Below are positions 1 to 43,440 of a stretch of 64,000 nucleotides of DNA, piece after piece. A model generated the notes under the pieces. The model was not told where the DNA came from. It searched no databases and saw only the letters and a program-made list of their open reading frames with translations. A program made the translations under genes and the position numbers. How positions within the stretch are numbered: position 1 is the stretch's first letter; each line of letters starts with the position of its first letter. The stretch is from assembly GCA_050179935.1 (NCBI GenBank), contig JBFXEQ010000005.1:39738-103737 (forward strand). The letters run 5' to 3'. The DNA comes from Bacteroidales bacterium (GTDB taxonomy: Bacteria; Bacteroidota; Bacteroidia; Bacteroidales; UBA12077).

Positions 1-371
1 ATCGTTCTGTAGCACAACAACACGGATTAAAATATATTTTGCTCCCGGATTCAGTTAATTTAAAACTTCCTGAACTCAATGAATTTTATCAAACTGCAAG
101 TGTTGAGATCATAGGTAGCAAACCTGGTGAAAAACTAATGCAAACTGGGCAGGCTATGGTTTATGGAATTACCATTTTAAAAAATGCACCAAATAAAGAA
201 CTGGCTGAAAAATTCTTAAAGTTTGTACTGGATGATAATGGTGGTAGAAAAATTCTGGAAAATAATGGTCAACCAGCATTAAAGCAAACAATTCCCGAAC
301 AACTGAATAAAATACCTAGTAATATCAAAATCCTTTTAAACAGATATTTTTTTTTGAAAAATGCTTTGTAA
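1..371 (+). CDS. Tungstate/molybdate ABC transporter periplasmic substrate-binding protein (WtpA/ModA-like), C-terminal fragment; 5' end lies outside the window
   Basis: The reading frame is open from the window edge (frame of nt 3). The listed TTG at 39 is internal. The tail 'GQAMVYGITILKNAPNKELAEKFLKFVLDDNGGRKILENNGQ' resembles the C-terminal lobe of WtpA-type solute-binding proteins. Matching permease and ATPase genes lie downstream. Confidence 0.65.
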   Translation, partial: RSVAQQHGLKYILLPDSVNLKLPELNEFYQTASVEIIGSKPGEKLMQTGQAMVYGITILKNAPNKELAEKFLKFVLDDNGGRKILENNGQPALKQTIPEQLNKIPSNIKILLNRYFFLKNAL

Positions 372-453: not shown

Positions 454-1047
454 ATGAAAAAAACTATTTATTTATTATTATTTGCTTTTATAGCAACAAC
501 AACTTTTGTATCGTGCGAAGACGAGGAAGAAACCAAATCACCATTTATAACAGTAAAAATGGGTGCTCAGTCGAATACAACTATTGGAGCATTTTATTCA
601 ATCGAAATGAATAGTGTTTACAATCAAGCTGTTGCATTTACAAAGCAAGACACAATTGATTTTCTTTGTTTTTATGAGCATGATGAAATCAACGACAGAA
701 TTAACGATATGACCTTGGCATCACCGGGAGCAAATATAACCGATATTTTTGTTGATGATATTACTACATCTCCTGATGTTTGGACAACCAAAAACTTAAC
801 CAAATTTCAAGAACCTAATCCAGCAATGACAGTAGCTCAGTTCGATTTATTAAAAGAAACTGATGCTATTATTGAAACCAGTTTTGACAATACAGTTCTC
901 AGTGGAAATAAAAAAGCAAAATTACTTGCTGTTAATGATATTTATGCTTTCAAAACTCATAACAATCAATATGGTTTGTTAAAAGTAACTGAAGTACTAG
1001 AAGGAAATGATGGATATATAAAATTTGTTTACATCATTAAAAAGTAA
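454..1047 (+). CDS. Lipoprotein, uncharacterised family (paralog 1 of 3 in this window)
   Basis: Signal peptide plus lipobox 'TTFVSC'. Its C-terminal block 'KKAKLLAVNDIYAFKTHNNQYGLLKVTEVLEGNDGYIKFVYIIKK' is shared with the ORFs at 1163-2065 and 37331-38275. It also carries the mid-block 'ASPGANI'. Confidence 0.7.
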   Translation: MKKTIYLLLFAFIATTTFVSCEDEEETKSPFITVKMGAQSNTTIGAFYSIEMNSVYNQAVAFTKQDTIDFLCFYEHDEINDRINDMTLASPGANITDIFVDDITTSPDVWTTKNLTKFQEPNPAMTVAQFDLLKETDAIIETSFDNTVLSGNKKAKLLAVNDIYAFKTHNNQYGLLKVTEVLEGNDGYIKFVYIIKK

Positions 1048-1067
1048 TTCTGATTAATTATAAAAAA

Positions 1068-1110
1068 TCCTACGTGAGTCTTTGTTATTCCCGTAGGGTT
1101 TTCCTTTTTT
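1068..1110 (+). terminator. Possible intrinsic terminator or attenuator hairpin
   Basis: 'CCTACG' (1069-1074) pairs with 'CGTAGG' (1092-1097) and is followed by 'TTTTCCTTTTTT'. The loop is long, so support is weak. Confidence 0.4.
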
Positions 1111-1162
1111 CCAATTATCCAAAAATAATTTATTGATTTTTTGAAAAGCTAACTATCAAACC

Positions 1163-2065
1163 ATGAAAACTAGTTGTATAATTGTAGTTACAGCTCTACT
1201 ATTCCTATTTACTCAATGTACTGAGGACGAAAATGTAACTTCGACTCCCTTTATTTTGCTAAAAACTGGGCTTTCCTATACAAATAATGAAGCTTACATT
1301 CCAGTTGGAGGTCAATTAAATTTTGGCATTTCAGCAGTAGGGGATGGATTTGAGATCACAAATCTTACTGTTAAACGCACCACAAATGCAGGTTCAGTAA
1401 CAGAGCTTGATAAAGGAATGTTTATTAAACAAGGTGGATTGGATACCATTCTGACTTATTACAAAGGTTATGCAGATCAGGAAACATGGGTTTTTTCGAT
1501 CATGAATAGTAATCGCGATACGGCTTCTGTTTCAATCATTGTTTATAAAGGTTCCGGAAGTGCTTATGGTGATATTGATTTTTTCCCTTCTATCACAATT
1601 GGATACCAAAACAATTCCTCTCTTCCTAATTTTGTTGATGTAAACACAGGATTGGCTTATACAGGTTCAACGGTATCAGGCAATGAATCTCTCATTGATT
1701 TAGTTAGTTATTATTACTTAAGTTCTGGATCATCATCTCCTACAATTTCATGTCCATCGTATAATACAGCAAAATCATATTATCCGGTAATGAACGACTG
1801 GGTAGTTCAAAATTCAACGGTTTATGATTATTATACTACAGATAATAACTTAATTTCTACAACTCAGTTTGATGCTGCACAAAATGATAGCTTGCTTATT
1901 AATGGATATAAACCCGAAAGCGTAAGTGGAACTTGTAAATTTTGTTTTGCTGATAAAGTGATTCCATTTAAAACAGGACAAGGGAAATACGGATTAATTA
2001 AAGTGATTCATGCTGACGAAACTGATACCGGGCACATTGAAATTGCAGTAAAAATTCAGAAATAA
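1163..2065 (+). CDS. Lipoprotein, uncharacterised family (paralog 2 of 3)
   Basis: Lipobox 'LFTQC'. Its C-terminal block 'KVIPFKTGQGKYGLIKVIHADETDTGHIEIAVKIQK' aligns with the tails of ORFs 454-1047 and 37331-38275. It lies directly upstream of the TBDR. Confidence 0.7.
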   Translation: MKTSCIIVVTALLFLFTQCTEDENVTSTPFILLKTGLSYTNNEAYIPVGGQLNFGISAVGDGFEITNLTVKRTTNAGSVTELDKGMFIKQGGLDTILTYYKGYADQETWVFSIMNSNRDTASVSIIVYKGSGSAYGDIDFFPSITIGYQNNSSLPNFVDVNTGLAYTGSTVSGNESLIDLVSYYYLSSGSSSPTISCPSYNTAKSYYPVMNDWVVQNSTVYDYYTTDNNLISTTQFDAAQNDSLLINGYKPESVSGTCKFCFADKVIPFKTGQGKYGLIKVIHADETDTGHIEIAVKIQK

Positions 2066-2075
2066 CGAATTGAAG

Positions 2076-4397
2076 ATGAAAAAACTAGTTGTACTTATTA
2101 TATTATTTACCTTATTTTCAGGAATTGTTTTTGCCCAATCGTCGATTAAGGGAACTATTGTTGATGAAGATACTTTTACAGCAATCAGTTTTGCTAATAT
2201 CTCTATTAATAAAGGGAAAGGTACTGTAAGTGACGAAAATGGAAATTTCATACTGAAAAACCTAAAACCAGGCAATTATACACTACAAATTTCATTTGTA
2301 GGATATGAATCAGTATTTCAAAATATTAAGGTAAATGACAACGAGATTCTTGAGCTTCAGATTAAACTAAAACCTTCTAATTATACAGCCGAAGATGTTG
2401 TAATTACTGCCACAAAGACTGAAAATTATATTAAAGATATTCCAACCCGCATAAACCTCATTTCGCCAAGGCAGATTGAAGCATTACCGGCTCAAACAAC
2501 CGACGAGTTACTGGCATTTGTACCTGGTGTAAATATTAACCGATCGTTTGGTATTTACTCGCATTCAGCTGCTGTAACCATGCGCGGACTAAACGGACAG
2601 GAACAAGGTCGTGTGTTGGTTATGATTGATGGAATTTCTGTTAATAAGTCTGATGGCGGATCGGTAAACTGGAATTTGTTAAATAATGATCAGATTGATC
2701 GTATTGAGGTAGTTAAAGGCCCCGGATCTTCACTTTATGGAGGAAATGCCATGGGTGGAGCAATAAATATCATCACCAAAAAACCTACAGAAAATATTCA
2801 GGGCAAATTAAGTGTTGATTATGGTACTTATAACACTATGCGAAGTCAATTGTATTTATCAGGTCGTTTAAATCCAGCTATTGATAAAGGTTTTTACTGG
2901 AATCTTAGTAGCTTTTACCGACAAAGCGATGGATATATGACCGCCTCGGAGGCAGATCAACTGGCAAACAAGTATCTTGTTAAATCAGATCTGAAAGAAT
3001 GGGCTGCAACCGCTAAAGTTGGTTACGACTTTAATCAAAACAATGGGCTGGAACTAGACATGCTTTATTATGATGATGATAGAGCTACCGGCGAAAAAGT
3101 TTTTCAACCCGAAGGAAATAATCGAGAGCATGATACCTATCAGATTAGGGCAAAGTATAATGGTCAGAAAAACAAGTTGAACTGGACTATTAATCTATTC
3201 TATCTAAACGAAGATTATAAAAGGATAAGCGAATATTATAAAGACGATTATACATTTTACAAAGTACTATCTGAAAGGGTTGATTTGGGTGCATTATCTT
3301 CCTTATCGTACAATTTGAAAAACCAAATAATAACAGGTGGTGTTGATCTTAAGCAAGGCCGTGTTGATGCAAAAGATATTTATTATACCTCATCCGATAT
3401 AGTTTATAACCGCGGTAAAATGAATACGCTGGGATTATTTATTCAGGACGAAATAAAATTACTGAATAATAAACTAAAAGTTATTGCAGGATTAAGATTT
3501 GATTATGCCAACTTCTTTGATGGAGGATTTGAGATTGAGAATCCTACTGCGGAAACTACTTTTATGTTAGCTTATCATGATGACAATTTAAAAGAAGATA
3601 CATGGAATGCATTAAGTCCTAAATTGTCGGTACAGTATGAATTTACAAATGATTACCGCATTTACGCCAGCTTTTCCAAAGGATTTAGACCTGCTGTTTT
3701 AGATGATATGTGTCGCTCAGGAAGAATAAAAGGCGGATTTAAAGTTGCCGATCCAGGTTTGCAGCCGGAATACCTAAGTAATTTTGAAATTGGTGCTGAT
3801 GCCAAATTCTTTCAGCGATTAAGAACATCATTATCTGCTTTTTATTCTATGGGTGATGATTTTATGTATTATGTTAATACCGGCGATTCTATTGATCTTG
3901 GCTTCGGTTTGCGTCCTATAATTAAAGCCTCCAATATCTCCGAAGTTGAGATTTATGGACTCGAGTTTGAAGCAAATTATCTGCTTACCGATTATATTAT
4001 TTTTAATGCGAATTATGCCTATTCTCATTCACAAATAAAAGATTTTACACCTTTGAATGTAAGTGATCCGGTTGATTTAACAGGTAAATATTTATCTGAT
4101 GTGCCAAGCCACTCAGGTTCGTTTTCTGTAAACTGGCGTAATAAAATAGTTAATGCAGGTATTAATGCAAAATATACTGGAAGCAGATGGGTAAATGATT
4201 TAAACCAGATGGATGAAATTATTCTGGATGATAAATACCCATCATTTACAACGCTTGATTTGAAATTATCAAAATCATTTAAAATGATTTTTACAACGCT
4301 AAGTATCCAGAATATTCTTGATACCAAGTTTTACGATAGCAAAGGAGCAGTCTGCCCCGGCAGATTTATTACACTTGAATTAGGTCTAAAGTTTTAA
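2076..4397 (+). CDS. TonB-dependent outer-membrane receptor with an N-terminal CarboxypepD_reg-like domain
   Basis: Signal peptide, then 'GTIVDEDTFTAISFANISI...NLKPGNYTLQISFVGY' and a plug block 'RIEVVKGPGSSLYGGNAMGGAINIITKK'. It ends with a C-terminal aromatic, 'LELGLKF'. I prefer the ATG at 2076 over the TTG at 2070. Confidence 0.9.
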   Translation: MKKLVVLIILFTLFSGIVFAQSSIKGTIVDEDTFTAISFANISINKGKGTVSDENGNFILKNLKPGNYTLQISFVGYESVFQNIKVNDNEILELQIKLKPSNYTAEDVVITATKTENYIKDIPTRINLISPRQIEALPAQTTDELLAFVPGVNINRSFGIYSHSAAVTMRGLNGQEQGRVLVMIDGISVNKSDGGSVNWNLLNNDQIDRIEVVKGPGSSLYGGNAMGGAINIITKKPTENIQGKLSVDYGTYNTMRSQLYLSGRLNPAIDKGFYWNLSSFYRQSDGYMTASEADQLANKYLVKSDLKEWAATAKVGYDFNQNNGLELDMLYYDDDRATGEKVFQPEGNNREHDTYQIRAKYNGQKNKLNWTINLFYLNEDYKRISEYYKDDYTFYKVLSERVDLGALSSLSYNLKNQIITGGVDLKQGRVDAKDIYYTSSDIVYNRGKMNTLGLFIQDEIKLLNNKLKVIAGLRFDYANFFDGGFEIENPTAETTFMLAYHDDNLKEDTWNALSPKLSVQYEFTNDYRIYASFSKGFRPAVLDDMCRSGRIKGGFKVADPGLQPEYLSNFEIGADAKFFQRLRTSLSAFYSMGDDFMYYVNTGDSIDLGFGLRPIIKASNISEVEIYGLEFEANYLLTDYIIFNANYAYSHSQIKDFTPLNVSDPVDLTGKYLSDVPSHSGSFSVNWRNKIVNAGINAKYTGSRWVNDLNQMDEIILDDKYPSFTTLDLKLSKSFKMIFTTLSIQNILDTKFYDSKGAVCPGRFITLELGLKF

Positions 4398-4416: not shown

Positions 4417-5490
4417 ATGAAAAAACTATTTACAATTATTCTTGTAGGAATAAGCATTACAGCATGTAATGTAAAACAAACTGACAGTACAGCTGAGAAC
4501 AAATATCAGCGACAATTAACTGCCGACACAATTGATGCAACAAATGATTTTTATGATAACGCTGAAACTCATTTATTACCAGCACAACAACTTACCGTTG
4601 AAGGTGAAATAAGCAATCCAGGAATTGTAGATTTTACAAAGCTTCCATTGCGCAGTGTTATTGTTAAAGAAACACTTTTATCTGACAGTGGTGATAAATT
4701 TATTGGCGCTTATCGATATGATGGATATGCGCTTTACGACATTCTAAATCAGGTAAAACTGAATAAAAAAAACAAAGAAGAATTTAACCCGATTATTGAT
4801 TTATATGTTCAGATCGAGAATAACAAAGGCGAAAAAGCAACTATAAGCTGGGGCGAAATTTTTTACCCAAACCACTTACAGGAGATTATTATTGCCACTC
4901 AGGTTATGCGTATTGTGCCTTCAAAAACCAACGATCTTTGGCCTTTGCCCGAAGAAAGCAAGTTAGTTGTTTCGAGAGATCTGATAACTGAAAGAAATAT
5001 TTCATCACCAGTTAAAATAATTGTAAAATCATATCCAAAATCATTCGAAACAATTAAAGGATTAAAACCACTATTTTCCCCAACTATCGATATTTATAAC
5101 GAAAACGAGAAAATAGAAACTCTTACAGAAAATCCAAAAGAGTTGCAGATAGAAAAATTCAACACTATTTTTTATGGCCGTGGCAGAGGAATCCATTCTA
5201 CACAACCATTTACAGGTGTATTATTAAAAGATGTTTTGTTAAAAAATACTACATTTGATCAGAAAAATATCCGTGAAGGAATTTTCGTTGTTGTAGCAAA
5301 AGATGGATATAGAACTGTATTTACGTTTAGCGAAATAATGAATCGAAACGATCAAGCAGAGGTTCTTTTGGTTTGTCGCCCAGAAACAACAGATGATGGA
5401 ATTTTTAGATTATTTCCTGCATGCGATTTCTTTTCCGATAGAGCAGTAAAAGGAATAAACGCTATTTATTTTTCGGCTAACGAACAATAA
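4417..5490 (+). CDS. Lipoprotein with two tandem domains that resemble the molybdopterin-oxidoreductase (SUOX/YedY-type) fold
   Basis: Lipobox 'SITAC'. Segments such as 'FTGVLLKDVLLKNTTFD..REGIFVVVAKDGYRTVFTFSEIMNRNDQAEVLLVC' and 'YRYDGYALYDILNQVKL' recall the 'W.GV.L.dLL....v.f.a.DGY....' pattern of that fold. The fold assignment is tentative. Confidence 0.55.
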   Translation: MKKLFTIILVGISITACNVKQTDSTAENKYQRQLTADTIDATNDFYDNAETHLLPAQQLTVEGEISNPGIVDFTKLPLRSVIVKETLLSDSGDKFIGAYRYDGYALYDILNQVKLNKKNKEEFNPIIDLYVQIENNKGEKATISWGEIFYPNHLQEIIIATQVMRIVPSKTNDLWPLPEESKLVVSRDLITERNISSPVKIIVKSYPKSFETIKGLKPLFSPTIDIYNENEKIETLTENPKELQIEKFNTIFYGRGRGIHSTQPFTGVLLKDVLLKNTTFDQKNIREGIFVVVAKDGYRTVFTFSEIMNRNDQAEVLLVCRPETTDDGIFRLFPACDFFSDRAVKGINAIYFSANEQ

Positions 5491-5492
5491 AA

Positions 5493-6287
5493 ATGTATAA
5501 AAACAGGCTAAGTAGATTAGATATTATATTCTTAATTCTTGGTGGACTAATATTACTTTTTATTATTAGTCCACTACTTGGTATGTTTTTAGCCACAACA
5601 CCTGCACAATTTTTCGAAACATCAAAAGATCCCGAAGTACTTAATAGTATTTGGTTAACACTTTGGGTTTCGTTTGTCGCTACCATTATTTTTGCGTTTG
5701 GCGCAATTCCTCTATCCTACTTTCTAGCCCGAACCAATTTTCGGTTTAAAGGAATAGTAAATGGAATAGTTGATTTACCAGTGGTAATACCACATTCGGC
5801 TGCAGGTATTGCTATTTTGGGGTTTGTATCGCGCGATTCGGTGCTTGGTAAAATTGGTTCATCGATGGGGCTTAACTTTGTTGGTCATCCGGCTGGAATA
5901 GCAGTTGCCATGGCCTTTGTAAGTATTCCGTTTTTAATTAACGCTGCCCGCGATGGATTCGAAAATGTTCCGGAACGACTCGAAAAGACAGCTCTTAATT
6001 TGGGAGCGTCTCCTGTTCGTGTTTTTTTTACTATTTCGTTGCCTCTGGCCTGGAAAAATGTGTTATCGGGATTAATTATGATGTTCGCTCGTGGATTAAG
6101 CGAATTTGGTGCCGTAATAATCATTGCATATCATCCAATGATTACGCCTGTACTTATATTTGAACGTTTTGGTGCTTTTGGTTTAAAATATGCCCGACCC
6201 GTTTCGGTTGTATTTATTATCGTTTGCCTTGTGTTTTTTGTTCTGCTAAGAAGTCTTGCCAAAGAAAGGAAATCAAACGATGCTTAA
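5493..6287 (+). CDS. Tungstate/molybdate ABC transporter permease (WtpB/ModB family)
   Basis: Multi-TM protein with 'DLPVVIPHSAAGIAILGF', the EAA-type loop 'ERLEKTALNLGASPVRVFFTISLP' and the 'IIIAYHPMITPVLIFERF' block typical of WtpB-like permeases. Confidence 0.85.
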   Translation: MYKNRLSRLDIIFLILGGLILLFIISPLLGMFLATTPAQFFETSKDPEVLNSIWLTLWVSFVATIIFAFGAIPLSYFLARTNFRFKGIVNGIVDLPVVIPHSAAGIAILGFVSRDSVLGKIGSSMGLNFVGHPAGIAVAMAFVSIPFLINAARDGFENVPERLEKTALNLGASPVRVFFTISLPLAWKNVLSGLIMMFARGLSEFGAVIIIAYHPMITPVLIFERFGAFGLKYARPVSVVFIIVCLVFFVLLRSLAKERKSNDA

Positions 6288-7320
6288 ATTAAAAGATATT
6301 TCGATTAAACTGGGCGATTTTAAGCTAAAGAACATTGATCTTGAGTTGGAAAAAGAGGATTACTATGTTTTATTAGGCAAATCAGGAGTTGGAAAAACGG
6401 TTCTGCTCGAAATTATTGCCGGATTAATAAATCCAGAATCAGGGCAGGTATTTTTAAATGATATTGATATTACCCACGAAAAAATTCAGAAGAGAAAAGT
6501 AGGCATTGTATTTCAGGACTATTCTATTTTTCCGCATTTATCAGTAAAGCAAAACATAGCCTACCCGTTAAAAGGAAAAAACCTGAACATCCAGCAGGCT
6601 GAAAAGCTTATAAATGAATTTGCTGAGTTAACCAATATTTCTCATTTACTAAACCGATCAACCAAAAAATTATCAGGAGGCGAACTACAACGTGTAGCGT
6701 TGGCCCGAACATTAATTACCAAACCCGATTGTCTTTTATTGGATGAACCACTGGCATCGCTAGATATACAACTAAAAGGTGATTTACGAAATTTACTTCG
6801 CAAAATAAACCAGAACGGAACAACCATTTTGCATGTAACCCACGATTATGAAGAAGCAATTGCGTTGTCGAATAAAGTAGCCGTAATGCATGAAGGTGAG
6901 ATTATTCAAAAAGGATTAACAAAAGAAGTATTTCAAAAACCTACTAATGAATTTGTGGCCAATTTTACCGGAATAAAAAACTTTTTTTATGCTGAGTTTA
7001 CGCCAATTAATACGGCCAAAATAAACGACAACGTTGAAATCCATATAAGCAATCATGAGCAATTAAAAACTGGCAAAATAATAATTCGAGGCGAAGAAAT
7101 TATTGTTTCAGAAAACTGCTTACAGTCAAGTGCTACCAATAATTTTAAAGGTAAAATACTCCAGATTATCCCCTATTTTTCGAATTACGAATTAATTGTT
7201 GATATAGGGATTGAACTATCGGTGGTAATATCCGAAGAGTCTTTTTCGAAATTTAATTTTAAAAATCATTCAGAGGCATGGGTTTCATTTAAATCAACAG
7301 CTATAAAAATCATCCCTTAA
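6280..7320 (+). CDS. Tungstate/molybdate ABC transporter ATP-binding protein with a C-terminal TOBE-like domain (WtpC/ModC family)
   Basis: Walker A 'GKSGVGKT', signature 'LSGGELQRVALAR', Walker B 'LLLDEP', and a C-terminal OB/TOBE-like tail. I prefer the ATG at 6280, which overlaps the permease stop by 8 nt, over the TTG at 6256. Confidence 0.9.
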   Translation: MLKLKDISIKLGDFKLKNIDLELEKEDYYVLLGKSGVGKTVLLEIIAGLINPESGQVFLNDIDITHEKIQKRKVGIVFQDYSIFPHLSVKQNIAYPLKGKNLNIQQAEKLINEFAELTNISHLLNRSTKKLSGGELQRVALARTLITKPDCLLLDEPLASLDIQLKGDLRNLLRKINQNGTTILHVTHDYEEAIALSNKVAVMHEGEIIQKGLTKEVFQKPTNEFVANFTGIKNFFYAEFTPINTAKINDNVEIHISNHEQLKTGKIIIRGEEIIVSENCLQSSATNNFKGKILQIIPYFSNYELIVDIGIELSVVISEESFSKFNFKNHSEAWVSFKSTAIKIIP

Positions 7321-7382: not shown

Positions 7383-7796
7383 ATGGAATTAACATCAATA
7401 AATTTTATAGCGGTGCTAGTTTCAGCTCTATCTGCGTTTGCAATTGGCTCTGTTTGGTACAGCCCGCTTATGTTCAGTAAAGCCTGGCAAAATGCGTTAG
7501 GCTTATCAGAAAAAGATATAAAAGAAGCTAATATGGTTTTAATTTTTGGAACCAGCTTTTTATTAATGTTCGTAATGGCAATTGGTTTATCGGTACTTTT
7601 AAACGCTTTAAATCCTAACGGAATTAACTGGTTAACAGGATTGAAACAAGGATTATTTATTGGTTTATTTTTTATTGCCACTTCGTATGGGGTAAACATT
7701 CTTTACCAGCGCAAATCGTTTAAATTATGGCTAATTGATTCTGGATATCAGGTTCTGTTACTCGGTATTATGGGTTTAATTATCGGTGCATGGTAA
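7383..7796 (+). CDS. DUF1761-family membrane protein
   Basis: 4-TM protein with an N-terminus 'INFIAVLVSALSAFAIGSVWYSPLMFSKAW' typical of DUF1761. Confidence 0.7.
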   Translation: MELTSINFIAVLVSALSAFAIGSVWYSPLMFSKAWQNALGLSEKDIKEANMVLIFGTSFLLMFVMAIGLSVLLNALNPNGINWLTGLKQGLFIGLFFIATSYGVNILYQRKSFKLWLIDSGYQVLLLGIMGLIIGAW

Positions 7797-7910
7797 TATT
7801 AAATTGCTGTTTTCTTTTTTAAATCTTTACATTTGTTAATTGTATTTCATTTATTTGCAAAGATTTTTTTGAATGAGGTTGGGACTTATAATTATTTGTT
7901 TATTTGATTA

Positions 7911-9086
7911 ATGATAAGATCATTCGCTTATAGGAGCATCATGTTTTTTGCAGGTATTTTATTTTTCATACTTGCCACATCCTTTACATTTTATAATCAT
8001 CCTAACGAAAATCATGATTTTAAAAGCGAAGAGACTCATCGCCCTGCATTTTTTCGTAATAAAATAATTACCGATGGGCCTTATGTTTTTTACGAAAATA
8101 ACGAGATTGTTGTACGATGGATTAAGGGAAAGCAACTAATAACTAAGAATCTATCAGGCGAAAACACAAAATACCTTCGTAAAAAATTTGGATTAAACAT
8201 TCCCATTGAAAACATTAAAAATCCCAATTCTAAACCCATTAATTATATTCAACAATACACAAACGTTGATAATGTAGTAATTATAAGTGATCCGCATGGC
8301 CAATTTGATTTGTTTACCAGTCTGCTAAAAGATCATCAGGTATTAAACGCAAATCTTGATTGGATTTTTGAAACCGGGCATTTAGTAATTTTAGGTGATG
8401 TATTCGATCGTGGATCAAAAGTAACCGAGCTATTATGGTTGATTTATCAATTAGAACAACAAGCTGAAAAAGCGGGCGGAAAAGTTCATTATATACTTGG
8501 TAATCACGAATTAATGGTTTTGAATAATGATTTACGGTATATTAATGAAAAATATATCCATTCGAGCCAAAAAATGAATATGGTTTATACCCAGCTTTTT
8601 GATGTAAACACCTTTTTTGGACAGTGGTTGCGATCAAAACCTGTAATGGTAAGTATTAACGACATGCTCTTTGTGCATGCCGGAATATCACCCGAGTTTT
8701 TATCAGCAGAACTTACTATTGAAAAAACAAATCAGATTTTTCACCAAAAAATAATTGGCAGGTCTTGGGATGTTATTTTAAATGATTCGATTAGCACCTT
8801 TTTGCTTAGCGAAAATGGTCCTTTATGGTATCGTGGTTATTTTAAAGAAATTATACCGGATAAAGAAATTGATAAAATTCTGAACTTTTTTAATTCAAAC
8901 CATTTAATTATTGGACATACCTCAATGCCCAATATTATGGCACTAAAAAGCGGAAAGATAATTATTGTCGACTCAGGGATTAAAGACGGAATTTATGGCG
9001 AAATCCTAATTTATAAAAAGAATGATTTATTCAGAGGCACTTCAAATGGAATGATTCTAAAACTAGAACCTCAGACTGGTTACTAA
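7911..9086 (+). CDS. Calcineurin-like metallophosphoesterase with an N-terminal membrane anchor
   Basis: Motifs 'ISDPHG', 'GDVFDRG' and 'GNHE'. Confidence 0.85.
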   Translation: MIRSFAYRSIMFFAGILFFILATSFTFYNHPNENHDFKSEETHRPAFFRNKIITDGPYVFYENNEIVVRWIKGKQLITKNLSGENTKYLRKKFGLNIPIENIKNPNSKPINYIQQYTNVDNVVIISDPHGQFDLFTSLLKDHQVLNANLDWIFETGHLVILGDVFDRGSKVTELLWLIYQLEQQAEKAGGKVHYILGNHELMVLNNDLRYINEKYIHSSQKMNMVYTQLFDVNTFFGQWLRSKPVMVSINDMLFVHAGISPEFLSAELTIEKTNQIFHQKIIGRSWDVILNDSISTFLLSENGPLWYRGYFKEIIPDKEIDKILNFFNSNHLIIGHTSMPNIMALKSGKIIIVDSGIKDGIYGEILIYKKNDLFRGTSNGMILKLEPQTGY

Positions 9087-17929: not shown

Positions 17930-19891
17930 ATGTCATACCTAAATATAAATAAAGACGAATTAATCAACCTCGAATATTCATTAAAAAAGGAGATTTTGAG
18001 CACAAATCGGGCAGGTGGATATTTGAGTACAACAATTATTTTATGTAATACCCGTAAATATCACGGATTAATGGTATTACCAATAAAAGAATTTGATGAC
18101 GAAAACCATGTACTACTTTCGTCTGTTGATGAAACAATAATTCAACGGGGTAAATTATTTAATTTAGGTATTCATAAGTTTCCTGGAGTTGGCATATACG
18201 AGCCCCATGGACACAAGTATATCGCTGATTTTGAGTATGATCCTACACCAACTATTATTTACCGAGTAGGCGGAGTAATTCTTAAAAAAGAACTTTTATT
18301 TGTGCATAACGAAGAGCATTTTATGATTCGTTATACTCTTTTAGATGCTCATTCACCAACCCGGATAAGAATAAAACCATTTCTTGCTTTTAGAAATATT
18401 CATAAACTATCTAAAGCAAATTTGTTTGCAAATACCAAGTATAAGACAATAAACAATGGTGTAAAATACAAACTTTATTCAGGGTTTCCCTACTTAAACA
18501 TGCAGTTAAACAAAACAAATGAGTTTGTTGCATCACCCGATTGGTATTATAACATAGAATATTTACAAGAATTAAACAGAGGATATGATTTTCAGGAAGA
18601 TCTATTTGTTCCGGGCTTCTTCGAGGTTCCGATAAAAAAAGGAGAATCAGTTATTTTCTCAGCATCAACCACCGAAATAAATCCTACAGGATTAACCCGT
18701 AAGTTTGAATCGGAGCTTAAACGCAGGCCACCAAAAGATAATTTCGAAAATTGTTTGAAAAATGCAGCACACCAGTTTTTAGTTCAACGCGAAAAAACTA
18801 CCGAAATAGTTGCAGGATATCCCTGGTTTGGTCGATGGGGCCGTGATACATTTATCTCATTGCCCGGACTTACAATCTGCACAGGCGATCTTAAATCGTG
18901 CAAACAGGTGCTCGATACCATGTCTCATGAGTTAAAAGGAGGTTTGTTTCCAAATATAGGCAAAAACAGTAATGCCGCATTTAACTCAGTGGATGCTCCA
19001 TTATGGTTTTTTTGGACTTTGCAGATGTATGCAAAAGCGTTAAACTCAGAAAAAACCATATGGGGTGATTATGGTAAAAAGATGAAACAGATTCTCGAAA
19101 ATTATCGCAAAGGTCTTGAGTACAATATAAAAATGCACGACAAAGGATTAATTTGGCAAGGTGAGCATGGCAGAGCTCTTACATGGATGGATGCTGTAGT
19201 TGATGGAAAACCAGTTACTCCTCGCATTGGATATGCTGTTGAAATAAACGCTCTCTGGTATAATGCTGTTTGTTATACCTTAAGACTAGCCAACGAATTT
19301 GGAGATAAAAATTTTGTAAATGAATGGAGAGATATTCCTGAATTAACAAAAAAATCGTTTAATGAACTGTTTTGGTTTGAAGAAAAAGGATATTTATATG
19401 ATCTTATAACAACTGAACCCTCCGACAAAGGGGTACGACCAAATCAGGTTTTTGCTGTATCGTTACCATTCAGTCCGCTCGATGAATCTCAGAAAAGGTC
19501 TGTGCTTACAGTTGTTGAAAAGGAATTGCTTACACCTAAAGGATTAAGAACTCTTTCGCCTAAAAACCACAACTATCATGGCCGATACGAAGGAAATCAG
19601 GCCGAAAGAGATAATGCATATCACCAGGGAACAGTTTGGCCATGGTTACTTGGCCATTTTGCCGAAGCAAACCTTGCAGTTTATGGCGACGATGCTATTC
19701 CGTTAATTGAAAATATCATTAACAACTTTAAGGAAGAAATGAATAAATACGGATTAAGCACCATTCCAGAGATTTATGATGGAGATCCACCTCAACACAG
19801 TAAAGGTGCTATTTCACAAGCATGGAGTGTCGGCGAAATATTACGAATATATTGTATGTTAAAAGAATATAAAAAGAGTAAACACTTATAA
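17930..19891 (+). CDS. Glycogen debranching enzyme (amylo-alpha-1,6-glucosidase, GDE_N + GDE_C type)
   Basis: N-terminal 'NRAGGY.STTI..CNTRKYHGL', then 'GYPWFGRWGRDTFISLPGL' and 'QGTVWPWLLGHF'. Confidence 0.9.
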   Translation: MSYLNINKDELINLEYSLKKEILSTNRAGGYLSTTIILCNTRKYHGLMVLPIKEFDDENHVLLSSVDETIIQRGKLFNLGIHKFPGVGIYEPHGHKYIADFEYDPTPTIIYRVGGVILKKELLFVHNEEHFMIRYTLLDAHSPTRIRIKPFLAFRNIHKLSKANLFANTKYKTINNGVKYKLYSGFPYLNMQLNKTNEFVASPDWYYNIEYLQELNRGYDFQEDLFVPGFFEVPIKKGESVIFSASTTEINPTGLTRKFESELKRRPPKDNFENCLKNAAHQFLVQREKTTEIVAGYPWFGRWGRDTFISLPGLTICTGDLKSCKQVLDTMSHELKGGLFPNIGKNSNAAFNSVDAPLWFFWTLQMYAKALNSEKTIWGDYGKKMKQILENYRKGLEYNIKMHDKGLIWQGEHGRALTWMDAVVDGKPVTPRIGYAVEINALWYNAVCYTLRLANEFGDKNFVNEWRDIPELTKKSFNELFWFEEKGYLYDLITTEPSDKGVRPNQVFAVSLPFSPLDESQKRSVLTVVEKELLTPKGLRTLSPKNHNYHGRYEGNQAERDNAYHQGTVWPWLLGHFAEANLAVYGDDAIPLIENIINNFKEEMNKYGLSTIPEIYDGDPPQHSKGAISQAWSVGEILRIYCMLKEYKKSKHL

Positions 19892-19902
19892 ATAAATTAG
19901 TC

Positions 19903-20115
19903 ATGGCAAAAAAAGAAGAAAAAACCAAATCAAAAGCTGCTCCCAAAAAACCGGTAGCAAAAAAAGTAACTGAAAAACCAAAAGTTAAAAAGACACAAGT
20001 TACAGACGAAGAAATAAAAGCCAGAGCATATGAGATTTATGTTGAAAACGGTTATCAGGGAAGTGAATTGGAAAATTGGATAAAAGCTGAAAAAGAGCTA
20101 ACAGGTAGAAAATAG
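19903..20115 (+). CDS. DUF2934-family small protein with a lysine-rich N-terminal tail
   Basis: 'IKARAYEIYVENGYQGSELENWIKAEKEL' is DUF2934-like. It is preceded by 'AKKEEKTKSKAAPKKPVAKKVTEKPKVKK'. Confidence 0.7.
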   Translation: MAKKEEKTKSKAAPKKPVAKKVTEKPKVKKTQVTDEEIKARAYEIYVENGYQGSELENWIKAEKELTGRK

Positions 20116-20174
20116 ATAAGTATTAATTTGCTTTGTTACCGGAATGATTAATTAAAAATGTAATTTCAAAACGG

Positions 20175-21458
20175 ATGAGAGTACTCATGTTTGGATGGGA
20201 GTTTCCGCCACATATTACGGGTGGATTAGGAACAGCCTGCTATGGCCTGGTAAAAGGCCTTGCAAAAAATGGTGTCGATGTTTTATTTGTTGTTCCAAAA
20301 GCTTTTGGCGATGAAGACAATCAGGTTGCACGAATTATAAATGCATCTGATGTTGAAATTAACAAGGAGACTCTTTTAATTGAAGATTTTTGGAAAAAAA
20401 TAACCTTAATGGAAATTGGTTCAAACCTTATACCATATGTTTCGCCCGAGGAATTTAAGCGCATTGTTGATCAAACACTATTAGACAAAACTGATATTGA
20501 GCATTCTATTTACAGAACCAAATACACCTTTTCGGGAAAATACGGAAAGGATTTGATGGAAGAAGTTTCAAGATATGCTCTGATAGCTTCTGTACTTGCA
20601 TCAAAAAATAATTTTGATATTATTCATGCTCACGACTGGCTTACATATCCTGCAGGAATTGCAGCAAAATCGGTATCGGGCAAACCACTAGTTATTCATG
20701 TACATGCCACTGAATTCGACAGATCCGGCGAAAACATCAATCAAAATGTTTATGACATTGAACGCAAAGGAATGGAAGCTGCAGACAGAGTTATTTGCGT
20801 TAGCAATTATACCCGAAACATTGTAATTAATCGTTATAATATTGATGAATCAAAGGTATTTACTGTACATAATGCTGTTGAATTTGAAAAGGAGGATAAT
20901 GCCCACGAATGGCAAAAATCGGTTCCTGAAAAAGTAGTTACCTTCTTGGGTAGAGTTACTTTTCAGAAAGGCCCCGATTATTTTGTTGAAGCAGCAAATA
21001 GGGTTTTACAAAAAGATCCAAATGTTCGATTTGTGATGGCCGGCAGTGGCGATATGCTAAATCGCATGATACGGCGTGTTGCCGAATTGCGCATTAGCGA
21101 AAAGTTCCATTTTACTGGATTTTTAAAAGGTGATGATGTCAATCGGCTTTTTATGCAAAGTGATTTATATGTTATGCCTTCGGTATCAGAGCCTTTTGGA
21201 ATTTCGCCACTCGAAGCAATGAGAGCAAGCGTTCCAGTAATTATATCTAAGCAATCAGGAGTATCTGAAGTGCTAAAACATGCCATAAAAATCGATTTTT
21301 GGGATATCGATGCAATGGCCGATGCAATTTACGGAATCATTAACTACGATGCTTTGTCTAGATTTTTCAGGCGTAATGGACAGGAAGAAGTATTGCATCT
21401 TAAATGGGAGAACGCAGCTTTTCAGGTTAATTCAATTTATCGATCCATATTTAATTGA
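20175..21458 (+). CDS. Glycosyltransferase family 4/5-like alpha-glucan (glycogen) synthase
   Basis: 'MRVLMFGWEFPPHITGGLGTACYGL' N-terminus and the GT-B C-terminal motif 'PSVSEPFGISPLEAM'. Confidence 0.85.
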   Translation: MRVLMFGWEFPPHITGGLGTACYGLVKGLAKNGVDVLFVVPKAFGDEDNQVARIINASDVEINKETLLIEDFWKKITLMEIGSNLIPYVSPEEFKRIVDQTLLDKTDIEHSIYRTKYTFSGKYGKDLMEEVSRYALIASVLASKNNFDIIHAHDWLTYPAGIAAKSVSGKPLVIHVHATEFDRSGENINQNVYDIERKGMEAADRVICVSNYTRNIVINRYNIDESKVFTVHNAVEFEKEDNAHEWQKSVPEKVVTFLGRVTFQKGPDYFVEAANRVLQKDPNVRFVMAGSGDMLNRMIRRVAELRISEKFHFTGFLKGDDVNRLFMQSDLYVMPSVSEPFGISPLEAMRASVPVIISKQSGVSEVLKHAIKIDFWDIDAMADAIYGIINYDALSRFFRRNGQEEVLHLKWENAAFQVNSIYRSIFN

Positions 21459-21478
21459 AATTTTAAGATTACAACTAT

Positions 21479-22963
21479 ATGAGAACTATCTGTTTTTACT
21501 TTCAGGTTCATCAACCATTCAGATTAAAACGTTACCGATTTTTTGATATTGGTGCCCGACATAATTATTTCGATGATTATGCCAACCGATCAATCATGCG
21601 AAAAGTATCTGAAAAATGCTATTTACCCACAAATCAATTATTTCTTGATTTGATAAAAGAATATGGTTACAGATTTAAAATAAGTTATTCACTTTCAGGC
21701 ACTTTAATTGATCAACTTGAAATGTATGCTCCCGATGTGCTGGATAGCTTTAAACGACTTGCCGAAACCGGTTGTGTTGAGTTTCTTTCCGAAACCTATT
21801 CGCACTCTTTATCATCATTAAAAAGCCGTGAGGAATTTGAGAAACAAGTAGCCATGCATGATGAAAAAATAAAAGAACACTTTAATCAAACGCCCAAAGT
21901 ATTTCGTAATACTGAGTTAATTTATTCTGATACTATTGGTGCAATGGTTTCGGAGATGGGATTTAAAGCCATGCTTTGCGAAGGAGCCAAACATGTGCTG
22001 GGATGGAAAAGCCCCAATTATGCATATACCAATGCCATTGACCCTAAACTTAAACTTCTGTTAAAAAACTTTAAGTTAAGCGATGATATTGCTTTTCGTT
22101 TCTCGAACAGAGCTTGGGATGAGTGGCCTTTAACAACAGAAAAGTATGTCGATTGGCTCAATGCTGTCGATAAAAAAGAAGAGATTATAAATTTATTTAT
22201 GGATTACGAAACATTTGGCGAGCATCAATGGGCCGAAACGGGAATCTTTGAGTTTATGCGTCATTTGCCCAACAGAATCTTTTCACATTCTGATTACGAG
22301 TTCCTTACACCTTCTGAGGCTGCTGAAAAACATCAGCCAGTAGCCATGATGCATGTTCCACATCCTATTTCGTGGGCCGACGAAGAACGCGACCTTACAG
22401 CCTGGCTTGGTAATGATTTACAGGATGATGCATTCGATAAACTTTATTCTATTCGCGAAAAGATGAAACTGGTTACCGACGAAAACATTCTACGCGACTG
22501 GAAATACCTGCAAACCAGCGATCATTTTTATTATATGTGTACCAAATGGTTCTCCGATGGTGATGTTCATAAATACTTTAATCCGTACGACTCGCCATAC
22601 GATGCATTTATAAATTTTATGAATGCTTTAAGTGATTTTATGCTTCGTGTTGATGAGCATCTGGATCAACAAAACTTAAAACAATTTTTACCCGAAGAAA
22701 TAAATAAACTAATTTCGGAATACGAACTAAAAATCAATGAGTTAAAAGCTATTTCAAAAGAGAAACCAACTAATAAACTCAAAGCAAAAGCCACATCAGC
22801 TAAGAAAAAGGTTGCTATACAAAAAAAATCTACAAAACAAACAACACTAAAAAAAGCAACTCTAAAAAACACAACCAAAGCCGTGGAAAAAACAACAAAA
22901 GCTAAGGTTCCATCAAAAAATAAGGTAAAAAAAACTAACATAAAAACCAAAAAACAAGGATAA
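21479..22963 (+). CDS. Glycoside hydrolase family 57 protein (alpha-amylase / branching-type) with a lysine-rich C-terminal tail
   Basis: 'FYFQVHQPFRLKRY' and 'MDYETFGEHQW' are GH57 signatures. The last ~70 aa are K/T-rich and low-complexity. Confidence 0.85.
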   Translation: MRTICFYFQVHQPFRLKRYRFFDIGARHNYFDDYANRSIMRKVSEKCYLPTNQLFLDLIKEYGYRFKISYSLSGTLIDQLEMYAPDVLDSFKRLAETGCVEFLSETYSHSLSSLKSREEFEKQVAMHDEKIKEHFNQTPKVFRNTELIYSDTIGAMVSEMGFKAMLCEGAKHVLGWKSPNYAYTNAIDPKLKLLLKNFKLSDDIAFRFSNRAWDEWPLTTEKYVDWLNAVDKKEEIINLFMDYETFGEHQWAETGIFEFMRHLPNRIFSHSDYEFLTPSEAAEKHQPVAMMHVPHPISWADEERDLTAWLGNDLQDDAFDKLYSIREKMKLVTDENILRDWKYLQTSDHFYYMCTKWFSDGDVHKYFNPYDSPYDAFINFMNALSDFMLRVDEHLDQQNLKQFLPEEINKLISEYELKINELKAISKEKPTNKLKAKATSAKKKVAIQKKSTKQTTLKKATLKNTTKAVEKTTKAKVPSKNKVKKTNIKTKKQG

Positions 22964-22965
22964 CT

Positions 22966-35675: not shown

Positions 35676-36053
35676 ATGGCAGGCTCAAAAGGTTCAAAAT
35701 ATTATGATATTTTTTTGAAATTCAAAGTATGGCTTGAAAATACAAAAGGACAGGGTATTTTAGGCGATGGTAAATTTGAATTACTCGAAATGATCGATAA
35801 ACATGGGTCATTAAGTGCTGCAGCTGATAAAATGGGAATAAGTTATCGCAAAGCTTGGGGTAATGTGAAGGAGGCCGAAGAAAAACTAGGATTTATACTG
35901 GTTGAGAAACATCGTGGAGGAGCGCAAGGTGGAAATTCAGTTTTAACACCCGAAGGTAAAAGACTAATTGAAGCTTACAAAGAGCTTTTAGTTGAATTTG
36001 ATGAATCCATTCATCAAATAACTAAAAAATTCTTCAATAAAATTAATTCGTAG
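35676..36053 (+). CDS. ModE N-terminal-domain-like winged-helix regulator (125 aa, no Mop/TOBE molybdate-binding domains)
   Basis: 'GSLSAAADKMGISYRKAWGNVKEAEEKLGFILVEKHRGGAQGGNSVLTPEGKRLIEAY' matches the ModE/LysR-type HTH_1 N-domain pattern. Confidence 0.8.
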   Translation: MAGSKGSKYYDIFLKFKVWLENTKGQGILGDGKFELLEMIDKHGSLSAAADKMGISYRKAWGNVKEAEEKLGFILVEKHRGGAQGGNSVLTPEGKRLIEAYKELLVEFDESIHQITKKFFNKINS

Positions 36054-36056
36054 ATT

Positions 36057-37317: not shown

Positions 37318-37330
37318 AAAATCGCTTTTT

Positions 37331-38275: not shown

Positions 38276-38280
38276 GTTGC

Positions 38281-40569: not shown

Positions 40570-40632
40570 TTGTTCTTTTACAAAAAAATGGTGCAATTTT
40601 GCAATATAATTGGTTGGATTATAACTTAACAA

Positions 40633-41430: not shown

Positions 41431-41478
41431 TAACTGATATAAAACCAAAGAATAACTATTTTTGTAAAAATTTTGTAG

Positions 41479-43435: not shown

Positions 43436-43440
43436 AAGAA

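Follow-up and report, generated by a model that had tools for sequence, protein, structure and literature searches.

Moco enzymes receive their cofactor in the cytoplasm; those of the periplasm, for example MsrP, are exported in the folded state via the Tat pathway. In the SUOX enzymes, Mo is ligated by a conserved Cys residue, C102 in YedY and C185 in chicken SO. A Cys-less SUOX fold has been described in PruR of Agrobacterium tumefaciens (Atu3496), a Sec-exported, periplasmic, possibly lipidated and non-enzymatic protein that binds a small ligand, tetrahydromonapterin, in the former Moco cleft and regulates the c-di-GMP enzyme DcpA (PMC11194511). The classical WtpABC, TupABC and ModABC importers consist only of an SBP, a permease and an ATPase, and neither a SUOX-fold accessory nor a dedicated TBDR is described for them in the literature that we searched. 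In the ModA-IcmP system of Pseudomonas aeruginosa, a T6SS-secreted ModA docks on an outer-membrane protein (PMC11734730); besides this system, the literature searched contained no outer-membrane route for molybdate, and none at all for tungstate.

The window analysed here is a 64,000-nt stretch of DNA from a Bacteroidales bacterium, and all features given below lie on its + strand. ORF 4417..5490 is a real ORF that encodes a 357-aa SUOX-fold lipoprotein. The first-pass annotation had placed it between a TBDR gene and an ABC permease gene, and this arrangement was confirmed: the gene begins 19 nt after the end of the TBDR gene (2070..4397) and ends 2 nt before the start of a WtpB-like permease gene (5493..6287); this tight spacing is that of an operon. 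The TBDR consists of a CarboxypepD_reg-like domain, a Plug and a 22-strand barrel by Pfam (PF13715 3.1e-21, PF07715 2.4e-25, PF00593 4.5e-48), and it reached no specific NCBIfam equivalog. The best match of the permease is NF040839 (278 bits, equivalog cutoff 340), compared with 136 bits for ModB TIGR02141. Its gene overlaps by 32 nt with that of a WtpC-like ABC ATPase (6256..7320; NF040840 345 bits, cutoff 440; PF00005 1.3e-33), which carries a C-terminal TOBE domain (1.4e-3). Since both scores are below the NCBIfam equivalog cutoffs, the substrate specificity of this importer is unproven. The 3' end of a wtpA-like tungstate/molybdate SBP gene (1..371; frame 3 open from nt 3 to 371) runs off the start of the window; NF003196 WtpA gave 80 bits over the 98 residues present, and its related loci have full-length orthologues that score above the WtpA equivalog cutoffs (382 bits against 355 in locus L003).

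The N-terminus of the 357-aa protein, MKKLFTIILVGISITAC, forms a Sec/SPII signal peptide with the lipobox ITAC and the lipidated Cys17 (4417..4467) and has no twin-arginine motif, so that its earlier description as a lipoprotein holds; LPAM_1 matches were found in 7 of 43 homologues. In Bacteroidetes, the lipoprotein export signal is an acidic stretch at +2 to +6, of the form C-X-K-(D/E)2 or SDDDD (PMC5080379). This signal is missing from the mature N-terminus (C-NVKQTD) despite the lipobox. Over 53 members of the family, the mean number of D/E at +2 to +6 is 0.64 and only 4% have two or more. Two lipoproteins encoded upstream are predicted to be surface-exposed, and at least two D/E occur at these positions in 87% and 93% of the members of their families. 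One is a 197-aa protein (454..1047) whose lipid Cys is followed by acidic residues (C-EDEEE) and whose family accounts for the 93%. The other is a 300-aa DUF4466-like protein (1163..2065; C-TEDEN), in whose family K occurs at +3 in 61%, D/E at +4 in 100% and D/E at +5 in 74%. The two are paralogues (blastp E 8e-8). The AF2 model of the 300-aa protein (pLDDT 90.3) matches best the PDB entry 4ei0, a Parabacteroides DUF4466 protein (E 4e-11); we rejected this lipoprotein as a second SUOX-fold protein because its sulfite-oxidase matches probably reflect the SO Ig-like C-terminal domain and not the Moco domain. As the surface-export signal is lacking, unlike in its two upstream neighbours, the SUOX-fold lipoprotein is predicted to face the periplasm, and probably does so.

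The 357-aa protein consists of a duplicated SUOX/YedY (PF00174) fold, with the two copies in tandem, and its likeness to this fold is not due to chance. The duplication had been proposed from two stretches of the translation, and the segments quoted in support are present: YRYDGYALYDIL at residues 99-110, and FTGVLLKDVLL (265-275), GIFVVVAKDGYRTVFTFSEI (288-307) and AEVLLVC (314-320) in the second half. Structure search, Pfam-positive relatives and profile-profile alignments all agree with the proposal. The AF2 model has a pLDDT of 83.8, and its best 14 PDB fold matches by Foldseek are all SUOX-fold proteins (SorA, YedY, sulfite oxidases and PruR), followed by noise; E values to the SUOX-family Moco-domain folds range from 3e-5 to 7e-4. 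The profile of the N-domain aligned to residues 110-265 of E. coli MsrP, the Moco domain, with an E value of 1e-5. In HHalign, the N-domain matched the C-domain with a probability of 99.1% (E 5.6e-19, 137 columns). This decisive self-comparison used the diverse alignment A2; an earlier one, based on a narrow alignment, reached a probability of only 21% (E 1e-3), and BLASTP between the halves gave no significant match. The Pfam result was divided. Searched directly, the 357-aa protein reaches only 15.8 bits for PF00174 (E 0.011, residues 256-319), short of the gathering score of 24, but remote relatives score 29-47 bits and pass the gathering score in both domains, in the N-domains of P0203 and P0219 and in the C-domains of P0224, P0229 and P0263. 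Searches of the PDB by sequence were uninformative: the single sequence retrieved only fibronectin noise at E ~1, a 43-sequence profile gave zero matches, and a 52-sequence profile gave YedY at an E value of only 0.18. The fold is therefore assigned from the structure search, the profile-profile comparison and the Pfam-positive relatives.

Both domains, the N-terminal (approximately residues 55-212; 4579..5052) and the C-terminal (approximately residues 213-357; 5053..5487), are Cys-less in the sense that the Moco-ligating Cys is missing. The Mo-ligand Cys of MsrP aligns to the variable S91 in the N-domain. In the C-domain it maps to R255, and this mapping is transitive, via the N/C alignment, because the C-domain profile showed no significant match to the single MsrP sequence. 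The loop YGRGRGIHS (253-261) occupies the Cys-hairpin position there. Apart from the lipobox C17, no conserved Cys was found among 43 homologues, and C320 and C336 are not conserved. The twin-arginine signal of the E. coli MsrP precursor, KRRQVLK, also has no equivalent in the N-terminus MKKLFTIILVGISITAC, which lacks RR. Because the Mo-ligand Cys is absent and the signal is of the Sec/SPII and not of the Tat type, we conclude from the sequence that the protein is a repurposed fold, as had been suggested, and not a Moco enzyme.

Each domain has its own set of conserved polar residues. Throughout the superfamily, the N-domain keeps E147, D188 and R193 without exception; the C-domain has E306 and D337 as invariant residues and, as near-invariant ones, D296, G297, Y298, R299, D341 and R342. 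The linker that precedes the N-domain contains the conserved motif ADTIDATNDFYDN (residues 36-48; 4522..4560), with D37, N43, F45 and D47 invariant in the close family and the core NxF(F/Y)xN still present in mid-distance relatives. An FMN-attachment motif sits just upstream of this linker element in some relatives and is missing from the window protein. We considered the element ADTIDAT as a degenerate flavinylation site and rejected it, because P0130 has ADTIDAT as a separate element downstream of a real flavinylation site; support for ADTIDAT as a TonB-box-like element was too weak.

The SUOX-fold lipoprotein family is found in no fewer than 521 species genomes and forms over 2,000 protein clusters at the 90% identity level; its members are always annotated as 'hypothetical'. 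We counted its neighbours in 50 well-flanked loci. WtpABC genes lie within 8 kb of the SUOX-fold gene in 37 loci, and in 30 of the 50 one is directly adjacent. A homologous TBDR gene is directly upstream in 28 of the 50, an arrangement also seen in distant clades, and in 13/50 the SUOX-fold gene is inside a wtpABC operon without an adjacent TBDR. The genes are co-oriented, and their orders include WtpA-X-WtpB-WtpC, where X is the SUOX-fold gene; AOR, XdhC or Moa genes are near it in other loci. A Mo/W neighbour is absent in 6 of the 50 loci. An ABC ATPase upstream of P0141 was not counted as Mo/W evidence, as it is LolD/MacB-like instead. Membership of the family as a WtpABC accessory is supported by its conserved co-location and co-orientation with wtpA/B/C and by a natural fusion, in which the relative P0148 is joined to a bona fide WtpA (TIGR03730 288 bits, cutoff 243; two cluster members, four contig records).

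A second, paralogous cassette (35676..43992) is present in the same window. It begins with a ModE-N-like regulator (35676..36053), a 246-aa and a 192-aa unknown and a paralogue of the 300-aa lipoprotein. These are followed by a second TBDR, which shares 41% identity with the first, by an HDIG protein and by MoeA-type, MoaA and MoaC genes. Its position beside the MoeA-type, MoaA, MoaC and ModE-like genes ties this type of TBDR and lipoprotein to Mo/W metabolism a second time. The window and two related loci showed neither a Moco riboswitch nor any other Rfam family, which leaves the ModE-like neighbours of some loci as the only support for regulation by Mo/W status. A scan for sigma-70 promoters and terminators gave no information, since their counts did not exceed those expected from shuffling.

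The distant clades (24-45% identity) keep the order of the TBDR followed by the SUOX-fold module. Their neighbours include TupA-like SBPs, ExbB/ExbD/TonB, a ModE-like regulator and a gene for an AFOR-family tungsten-type (AOR) enzyme. The first-pass annotation had spoken of Mo/W in general; the WtpA, the TupA-like proteins and the AOR neighbour point more to tungsten. A CxxCH haem c motif is found in 24 of 77 superfamily (distant-clade) representatives and an [S/T]GA[S/T]-type flavinylation motif, at residues 13-43, in 10 of the 77, while neither occurs in the close family of the window protein (0/119 for each). The latter is the ApbE flavinylation motif as defined in PMC8238504, and its carriers among the 77 include the WtpA fusion P0148. 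No ApbE gene was found within the 12-kb locus of this fusion, where the neighbouring ORF encodes a beta-propeller. In a haem-clade cluster, two membrane-protein genes lie upstream of the TBDR gene, one with a weak CcsB-like match. Most carriers of the covalent redox-cofactor sites are MAGs of uncultured Bacteroidales. The distant clade has a fused corrin-methylase domain; it matched no specific equivalog and gave no clue to the ligand. The haem c and FMN motifs in these relatives suggest that the ancestral module performed redox chemistry rather than simple binding.

From these data, we favour, with modest confidence, a role of the SUOX-fold lipoprotein as a periplasm-facing, membrane-tethered accessory of TonB-dependent W/Mo uptake that receives cargo and hands it to WtpA. 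The two surface lipoproteins and the TBDR would carry a W/Mo species across the outer membrane. On the periplasmic side, it would be received by the Moco-free tandem SUOX-fold protein, whose vestigial cofactor/oxyanion cleft, in one domain or in both, is the probable site. This protein would then deliver tungstate or molybdate to WtpA, and WtpBC would import it. In domain 1, the residues that might contact the ligand, if they form a pocket, are S144-x-x-E147 and D188-x4-R193; for domain 2, we propose the loop Y253-GRGRGIHS, the motif D296-G-Y-R, E306 and the motif D337-x3-D-R342. The proposal builds on the observed fold and duplication, the Cys loss, the Sec/lipoprotein signal, the lack of a surface-export signal and the linkage to TBDR, WtpABC and W/Mo genes. 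A periplasmic shuttle or binding role had been suggested before, and its context stands up, as the WtpABC synteny, the WtpA fusion and the missing surface-export signal fit a periplasmic binding and hand-off role. The binding itself remains an inference because no ligand has been shown, and the same applies to the chemical species of the cargo and to the hand-off to WtpA. The six loci without a Mo/W neighbour and the haem c/FMN motifs in relatives count against the uptake-accessory role, as does the fact that WtpA-type SBPs elsewhere are not known to need a SUOX-fold partner.

Several other explanations have to be weighed against this role. The motifs in related clades leave open a redox-processing function, which the first-pass annotation did not consider. 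The protein might be an enzyme that turns what the TBDR delivers into a free oxyanion that WtpA can bind, with electrons supplied by a separate partner in the window clade; its substrates could be thio-tungstate or -molybdate, W/Mo in reduced form, or W/Mo bound to a metallophore or a pterin. The CxxCH and ApbE motifs in related clades (24/77 and 10/77, the latter including P0148) and the CcsB-like match, weak as it is, upstream of the haem-clade TBDR speak for this, and the Glu/Asp/Arg residues that are invariant in each of the two domains could have a catalytic function. However, both cofactor motifs are absent from the window clade (0/119), the cassette contains no conserved redox partner gene, and we know of no such cargo-converting chemistry for any Moco-less SUOX-fold protein. 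We therefore regard processing of the cargo as unlikely in this clade. A genuine SUOX-family oxidoreductase with a Mo or W cofactor, whose metal has an unusual ligand other than Cys, is scarcely credible: both domains have the fold, relatives exceed the PF00174 gathering score and the conserved acidic residues could in principle ligate the metal, but there is no conserved Cys, the signal is Sec/SPII without a twin arginine, the protein itself scores below the Pfam threshold and no electron-transfer partner is encoded nearby.

The remaining explanations involve no metal transfer by the protein. It could sense a small periplasmic pterin in the manner of PruR and modulate the transporter or the TBDR while carrying no metal. 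PruR, itself a Cys-less, Sec-exported SUOX-fold pterin binder (PMC11194511), is among the fold matches of the AF2 model (7kos, TM-score 0.56 normalised to PruR). PruR holds the pterin in a sandwich of Y104, W160 and N102, and the near-invariant D296-G-Y298 of the C-domain may match N-x-Y, so that its Tyr may correspond, by inference, to the pterin-stacking Tyr; no equivalent Trp was identified. Against pterin sensing stand the tandem architecture, the absence of the PW motif and of the truncated hairpin, the lack of a DcpA-type partner nearby and an operon logic of uptake and not of signalling, which together make it quite improbable. Even less can be said for a structural or assembly factor of the TBDR complex or the ABC importer, for example a periplasmic scaffold without ligand contact. 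Adjacency to the TBDR across all three clades and the membrane tether would suit such a factor, yet 13 of the 50 loci have the gene inside wtpABC operons with no adjacent TBDR, and the WtpA fusion and the pseudo-symmetric invariant polar residues fit ligand handling better; we consider it very improbable.

The uptake-accessory role can be extended, tentatively and as no more than a possibility, to an unrecognised TonB-dependent W/Mo pathway of Bacteroidota and relatives, in which the cofactor cleft of the SUOX module would be the receiver of the metal species and, in the haem c/FMN relatives, a redox processor. The cargo could then include thio-oxyanions, metallophore-bound metal or even scavenged pterin-bound W/Mo, converted or passed as tungstate to WtpA/TupA. 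In either case, the cassette of surface lipoproteins, TBDR, periplasmic SUOX-fold protein and WtpABC is a concrete and widespread candidate uptake system, and a TBDR and ABC-importer cassette for W/Mo scavenging was previously undescribed in the literature searched. If confirmed, it would be relevant to trace-metal ecology in the habitats of these uncultured Bacteroidales and to W/Mo competition in microbial communities.

The cassette follows the same logic as the Bacteroidota TBDR systems for B12 (BtuB-BtuG/BtuH) and SusC/SusD (PMC6143338, PMC5080379), with an N-terminally extended TBDR, surface lipoproteins with acidic signals and then an inner-membrane importer. It differs from them in its inferred cargo, which is W/Mo and not a vitamin or glycan, and in its lipoproteins, which are DUF4466-like and not of the BtuG or SusD type. 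To our knowledge, the periplasm-facing SUOX-fold lipoprotein has no counterpart in BtuB/BtuG or SusC/SusD systems. With WtpABC, TupABC and ModABC it is connected by a SUOX-fold gene that is embedded in or adjoins such operons and by the relative fused to WtpA, while the ModA-IcmP system has neither a SUOX-fold protein nor a lipoprotein cassette.

The SUOX Moco enzymes MsrP/YedY (1xdq), SorA (2blf) and the sulfite oxidases (1sox, 6y0k) have the same Moco-domain fold, and their stretches 'GxxLxDLL' and 'DGY…SE' are recognisable in the window protein. In contrast to these enzymes, the window protein has two Moco-like domains in tandem, scores below the PF00174 gathering score and lacks the Mo-ligand Cys, the Tat signal, the Ig-like dimerisation domain and a cytochrome partner. 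PruR (PDB 7kos/7kou) and its proteobacterial homologues share with it the Cys-less SUOX-type fold and Sec export. However, PruR has only one domain of ~170 aa, in which the hairpin is truncated and a PW motif (W70) is present, whereas the tandem 357-aa protein has a full-length hairpin, as the N-domain aligns to MsrP without gaps, and no PW motif, with S91 and R255 in place of the Trp. The genomic setting also differs, since the window protein belongs to W/Mo uptake operons with TBDR and WtpABC neighbours and has no DcpA-type DGC/PDE nearby. The window protein extends the idea, derived from PruR, that a Moco-binding fold can be recycled as a cofactor-free periplasmic ligand binder; new with respect to PruR are that the fold is duplicated, that it is tied to the uptake of the metal that it once held, and that its sister clades carry haem c and covalent-FMN motifs.

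The gene at 4417..5490 (+) is a real open reading frame encoding the 357-aa lipoprotein claimed in the first-pass annotation. Its N-terminus, MKKLFTIILVGISITAC, is a Sec-type signal peptide with a lipobox at its end, the lipidated Cys being residue 17. The protein was also said to lie between a TonB-dependent receptor (TBDR) and an ABC permease, and it does: the stop codon of the TBDR (2070..4397; CarboxypepD_reg-like domain, plug and barrel) precedes its start by 19 nt, and the permease gene follows after 2 nt. The permease has its best NCBIfam match in WtpB (278 bits), and the ATPase whose gene overlaps it, which contains a TOBE domain, in WtpC (345 bits), both under the equivalog cutoffs. 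A wtpA-like gene cut by the window start (open frame 3..371) and genes for a 197-aa and a 300-aa lipoprotein (454..1047 and 1163..2065) complete this first cassette upstream. On its other side, wtpC is followed (7383..9086) by a DUF1761 membrane protein and then by an ORF of metallophosphatase type (391 aa), an arrangement repeated at a few related loci (L003/L019, L005, L006, L007, L015); whether the operon includes them is unclear.

The two segments on which a duplicated SUOX/YedY fold had been proposed lie at residues 99-110 and 265-320. The direct Pfam match to PF00174 (Oxidored_molyb) is weak and sub-threshold (residues 256-319, E 0.011; its 15.8 bits fall short of the gathering score, 24), and PDB sequence searches were negative or marginal. 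Four independent results nevertheless establish the fold. An AlphaFold2 model (43 homologues as input; pLDDT 83.8, pTM 0.82) has none but SUOX-fold proteins as its top 14 PDB fold matches, namely SorA, YedY/MsrP, the sulfite oxidases of Thermus and chicken, and PruR, which binds pterin; beyond them there is only noise. Among the 362 representative relatives (P numbers) that an exhaustive profile search recovered at E <= 1e-3, distant ones pass the PF00174 gathering score with the N-domain (P0203, P0219) or the C-domain (P0224, P0229, P0263), and some show two PF00174 stretches. The N-domain profile aligns with residues 110-265 of E. coli MsrP at E 1e-5. Finally, the halves 55-212 and 213-357 align with each other over 137 columns of a diverse alignment (HHalign probability 99.1%, E 5.6e-19), which bears out the duplication. 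The duplication is also visible in the residue sets invariant across the superfamily, S144-x-x-E147 and D188-x4-R193 in domain 1 and S305-E306 and D337-x3-D341-R342 in domain 2. Weak sub-threshold matches to NCBIfam NF041762 (‘GEGP motif-containing diheme protein’) at 5206..5367 (residues 264-317), seen also in P0203, P0229 and P0236, hint that this family may contain a related SUOX-like domain.

Relatives number about 2,100 at 90% clustering, every named one being a ‘hypothetical protein’, and a scan of one genome per species found them in 521 genomes, the best 80 of which are almost all uncultured Bacteroidales/Bacteroidota MAGs. Close homologues (57-70% identity) on contigs binned as Chlorobiota, Aminicenantes and Elusimicrobia (loci L018, L040, L060, L078) could be mis-binned or horizontally transferred out of Bacteroidota. 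We counted neighbours at the 50 loci that extend for 3 kb or more to either side of the gene. WtpA/B/C homologues lie within 8 kb at 37, an ABC gene directly adjoins at 30, and a homologous TBDR is directly upstream at 28. Both kinds of neighbour, Wtp genes and TBDR, occur at 24 loci; at 13 the gene (X) sits inside a wtpABC operon without an adjacent TBDR (WtpA-X-WtpB-WtpC or X-WtpA-WtpB-WtpC), and nine have neither. One of these nine adjoins XdhC together with a xanthine-dehydrogenase-type subunit, a second has an AOR gene nearby, and a third lies beside genes like those of the second cassette described below plus a TBDR; the other 6 of the 50 loci lack a visible Mo/W link. At related loci the neighbouring substrate-binding protein (SBP) qualifies as a true WtpA (382 bits, cutoff 355). 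In P0148 the tandem module is naturally fused to WtpA (TIGR03730, 288 bits, cutoff 243), as it is in a second cluster member from another source.

Surface export of Bacteroidota lipoproteins is signalled by acidic residues just after the lipidated Cys, as in C-X-K-(D/E)2-X or SDDDD (PMC5080379). We counted D/E at +2..+6 across related loci and found means of 3.71 in the 197-aa lipoprotein family (14 loci; 93% with at least two), 2.22 in the 300-aa family (23 loci; 87%) and 0.64 in the SUOX-fold family (53 loci; 4%). The 300-aa family further has K at +3 in 61% and D/E at +4 in 100% of its members. These predicted signals suggest that two of the cassette’s lipoproteins are on the surface and that the third faces the periplasm. 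The 197-aa protein is a paralogue of the 300-aa one, sharing its C-terminal domain (454..2065), and the model of the latter (pLDDT 90.3) best matches 4ei0, a DUF4466 protein of Parabacteroides (E 4e-11). Both carry textbook export signals, and the DUF4466-like 300-aa protein has an Ig-like N-terminal domain.

A second cassette (35676..43992) ties this type of TBDR and lipoprotein to Mo/W cofactor metabolism independently of the first. It opens with a ModE-N-like regulator and two unknowns of 246 and 192 aa. Next come a lipoprotein paralogous to the 300-aa one (27% identity, E 2e-25), whose C-NEEDKND start is acidic and export-type, a TBDR 41% identical to the first and an HDIG protein. MoeA-type, MoaA and MoaC genes close the cassette, which lacks a SUOX-fold gene. 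MoaA and MoaC clear NCBIfam cutoffs, and the MoeA-type gene clears Pfam cutoffs without reaching the NCBIfam MoeA equivalogs. The genes of the unknowns form a conserved, overlapping pair (36057..37317). The 246-aa product begins xxAIDDTDNxESRGTGFRARE and weakly matches methanogenesis marker protein 11 in that protein’s C-terminal part; the 192-aa product is a membrane protein. Such pairs recur near these cassettes in 7 of 80 loci, and the places where they occur comprise L070, L045, L048, L053, L056, L057, L069 and L001:240-1500. Elsewhere in the window, a glycogen-metabolism block (17930..27222; debranching enzyme, glycosyltransferase, GH57 and a 1418-aa glycogen synthase/phosphorylase fusion) and a T9SS-sorted beta-propeller protein (45272..47575) fit a Bacteroidota origin.

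The superfamily of the tandem module comprises at least three clades. None of 119 full-length sequences of the window’s clade has a cofactor-attachment motif (CxxCH or flavinylation). A mid-distance clade, making up 10 of the superfamily’s 77 representatives (P0130, P0147, the WtpA fusion P0148, P0150, P0155, P0157, P0170, P0184, P0188 and P0238; loci L092, L093, L094), has immediately behind the signal peptide a flavinylation motif of strict ApbE type, D[AG]x[ST]G[AS][ST] (PMC8238504). P0130 and P0150 are directly downstream of TBDRs 45% and 38% identical to the window’s. The 70-kb contig of L094 encodes, in order, ExbB, ExbD and, further on, MoaD/ThiS-like and MoeB/ThiF-like proteins, an aldehyde:ferredoxin oxidoreductase (AFOR family, the classic tungsten enzymes), a ModE-like HTH protein, a WtpA-type SBP, a TBDR and a tandem SUOX-fold protein. 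A distant clade, 24 of the 77 (P0203, P0219, P0224, P0236, P0245, P0249 and 18 others), has a CxxCH haem-attachment insert in domain 1, often with fusion to a corrin-methylase-like (TP_methylase) domain. This fusion occurs despite an N-terminal signal peptide, and a methylase fold in an exported protein is unexplained. P0236 lies behind a TBDR, upstream of which are two membrane-protein genes, one with a weak CcsB-like match; ExbB/ExbD/TonB and a TupA-like SBP belong to the cluster as well. P0164 adjoins a TupA-like SBP. Thus the TBDR-then-module order and the link to a tungstate/molybdate SBP are kept from about 85% to about 24% identity. Locus L086:3341-14751, of the CxxCH clade, also has an amino-acid-permease-type gene.

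The fold, its duplication, the loss of Cys, Sec/lipoprotein export, the missing surface signal and the very consistent linkage to TBDR, WtpABC, TupA and genes for W/Mo enzymes and cofactors are what is shown, and together they lead us to favor, by a modest margin over doubt, a periplasm-facing, membrane-tethered accessory of a TonB-dependent W/Mo acquisition route, whose cargo is undetermined. The protein would receive W/Mo cargo that the TBDR releases or, at loci without an adjoining TBDR, cargo that diffuses in, and would pass tungstate or molybdate to WtpA. Two features would suit an oxyanion, the loop rich in Arg, Gly and His where the Cys hairpin used to be and the paired sets of Glu, Asp and Arg, an inference made with the pocket geometry unseen; a purely structural role for the protein seems improbable. 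The main rival, itself unlikely, makes the module a processor of some W/Mo species other than an oxyanion, as suggested by the haem c and FMN sites of the sister clades, sites of a kind without counterpart in the window’s clade.

Catalysis by Moco (molybdenum cofactor) is the least credible reading, and we give it very little chance. The Mo-ligating Cys is missing from both domains: in the ungapped N-domain alignment its MsrP counterpart (RMRC) is matched by S91, where the loop is variable, and, through the N/C alignment, by R255 in the conserved loop Y253-GRGRGIHS. Without recourse to any alignment, the lipobox Cys is the only one conserved in the family, C320 and C336 being variable. Insertion of Moco takes place in the cytoplasm, and enzymes that carry it in the periplasm leave folded through the Tat pathway, so a Sec-exported lipoprotein cannot be a conventional molybdoenzyme; the signal peptide lacks a twin-arginine motif, and the MsrP precursor has KRRQVLK. 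Judged from its sequence the protein is not a Moco enzyme. PruR sets the precedent, a SUOX-fold protein without the Cys and exported by Sec whose role is ligand binding and not catalysis (PMC11194511). A similar pterin-sensor role is nonetheless doubtful here, only slightly less so than the structural one is remote, as PruR’s single domain, truncated hairpin, PW motif and operon with a c-di-GMP enzyme all fail to apply.

Under the accessory reading, a large unannotated family gains a clear, testable, though inferred, role in a process poorly described at the outer-membrane level. The relatives with the FMN motif constitute a putative class of flavinylation substrate absent from two flavinylation surveys (one PMC8238504), neither of which mentions SUOX-like or tungstate-linked substrates. 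In the literature searched, neither TBDR-linked uptake of tungstate or molybdate nor any SUOX-fold accessory of the Wtp/Tup/Mod transporters is described. The components of the cassette all come from known fold families and are not categorically new. The only outer-membrane Mo route mentioned in that literature is ModA-IcmP of P. aeruginosa.
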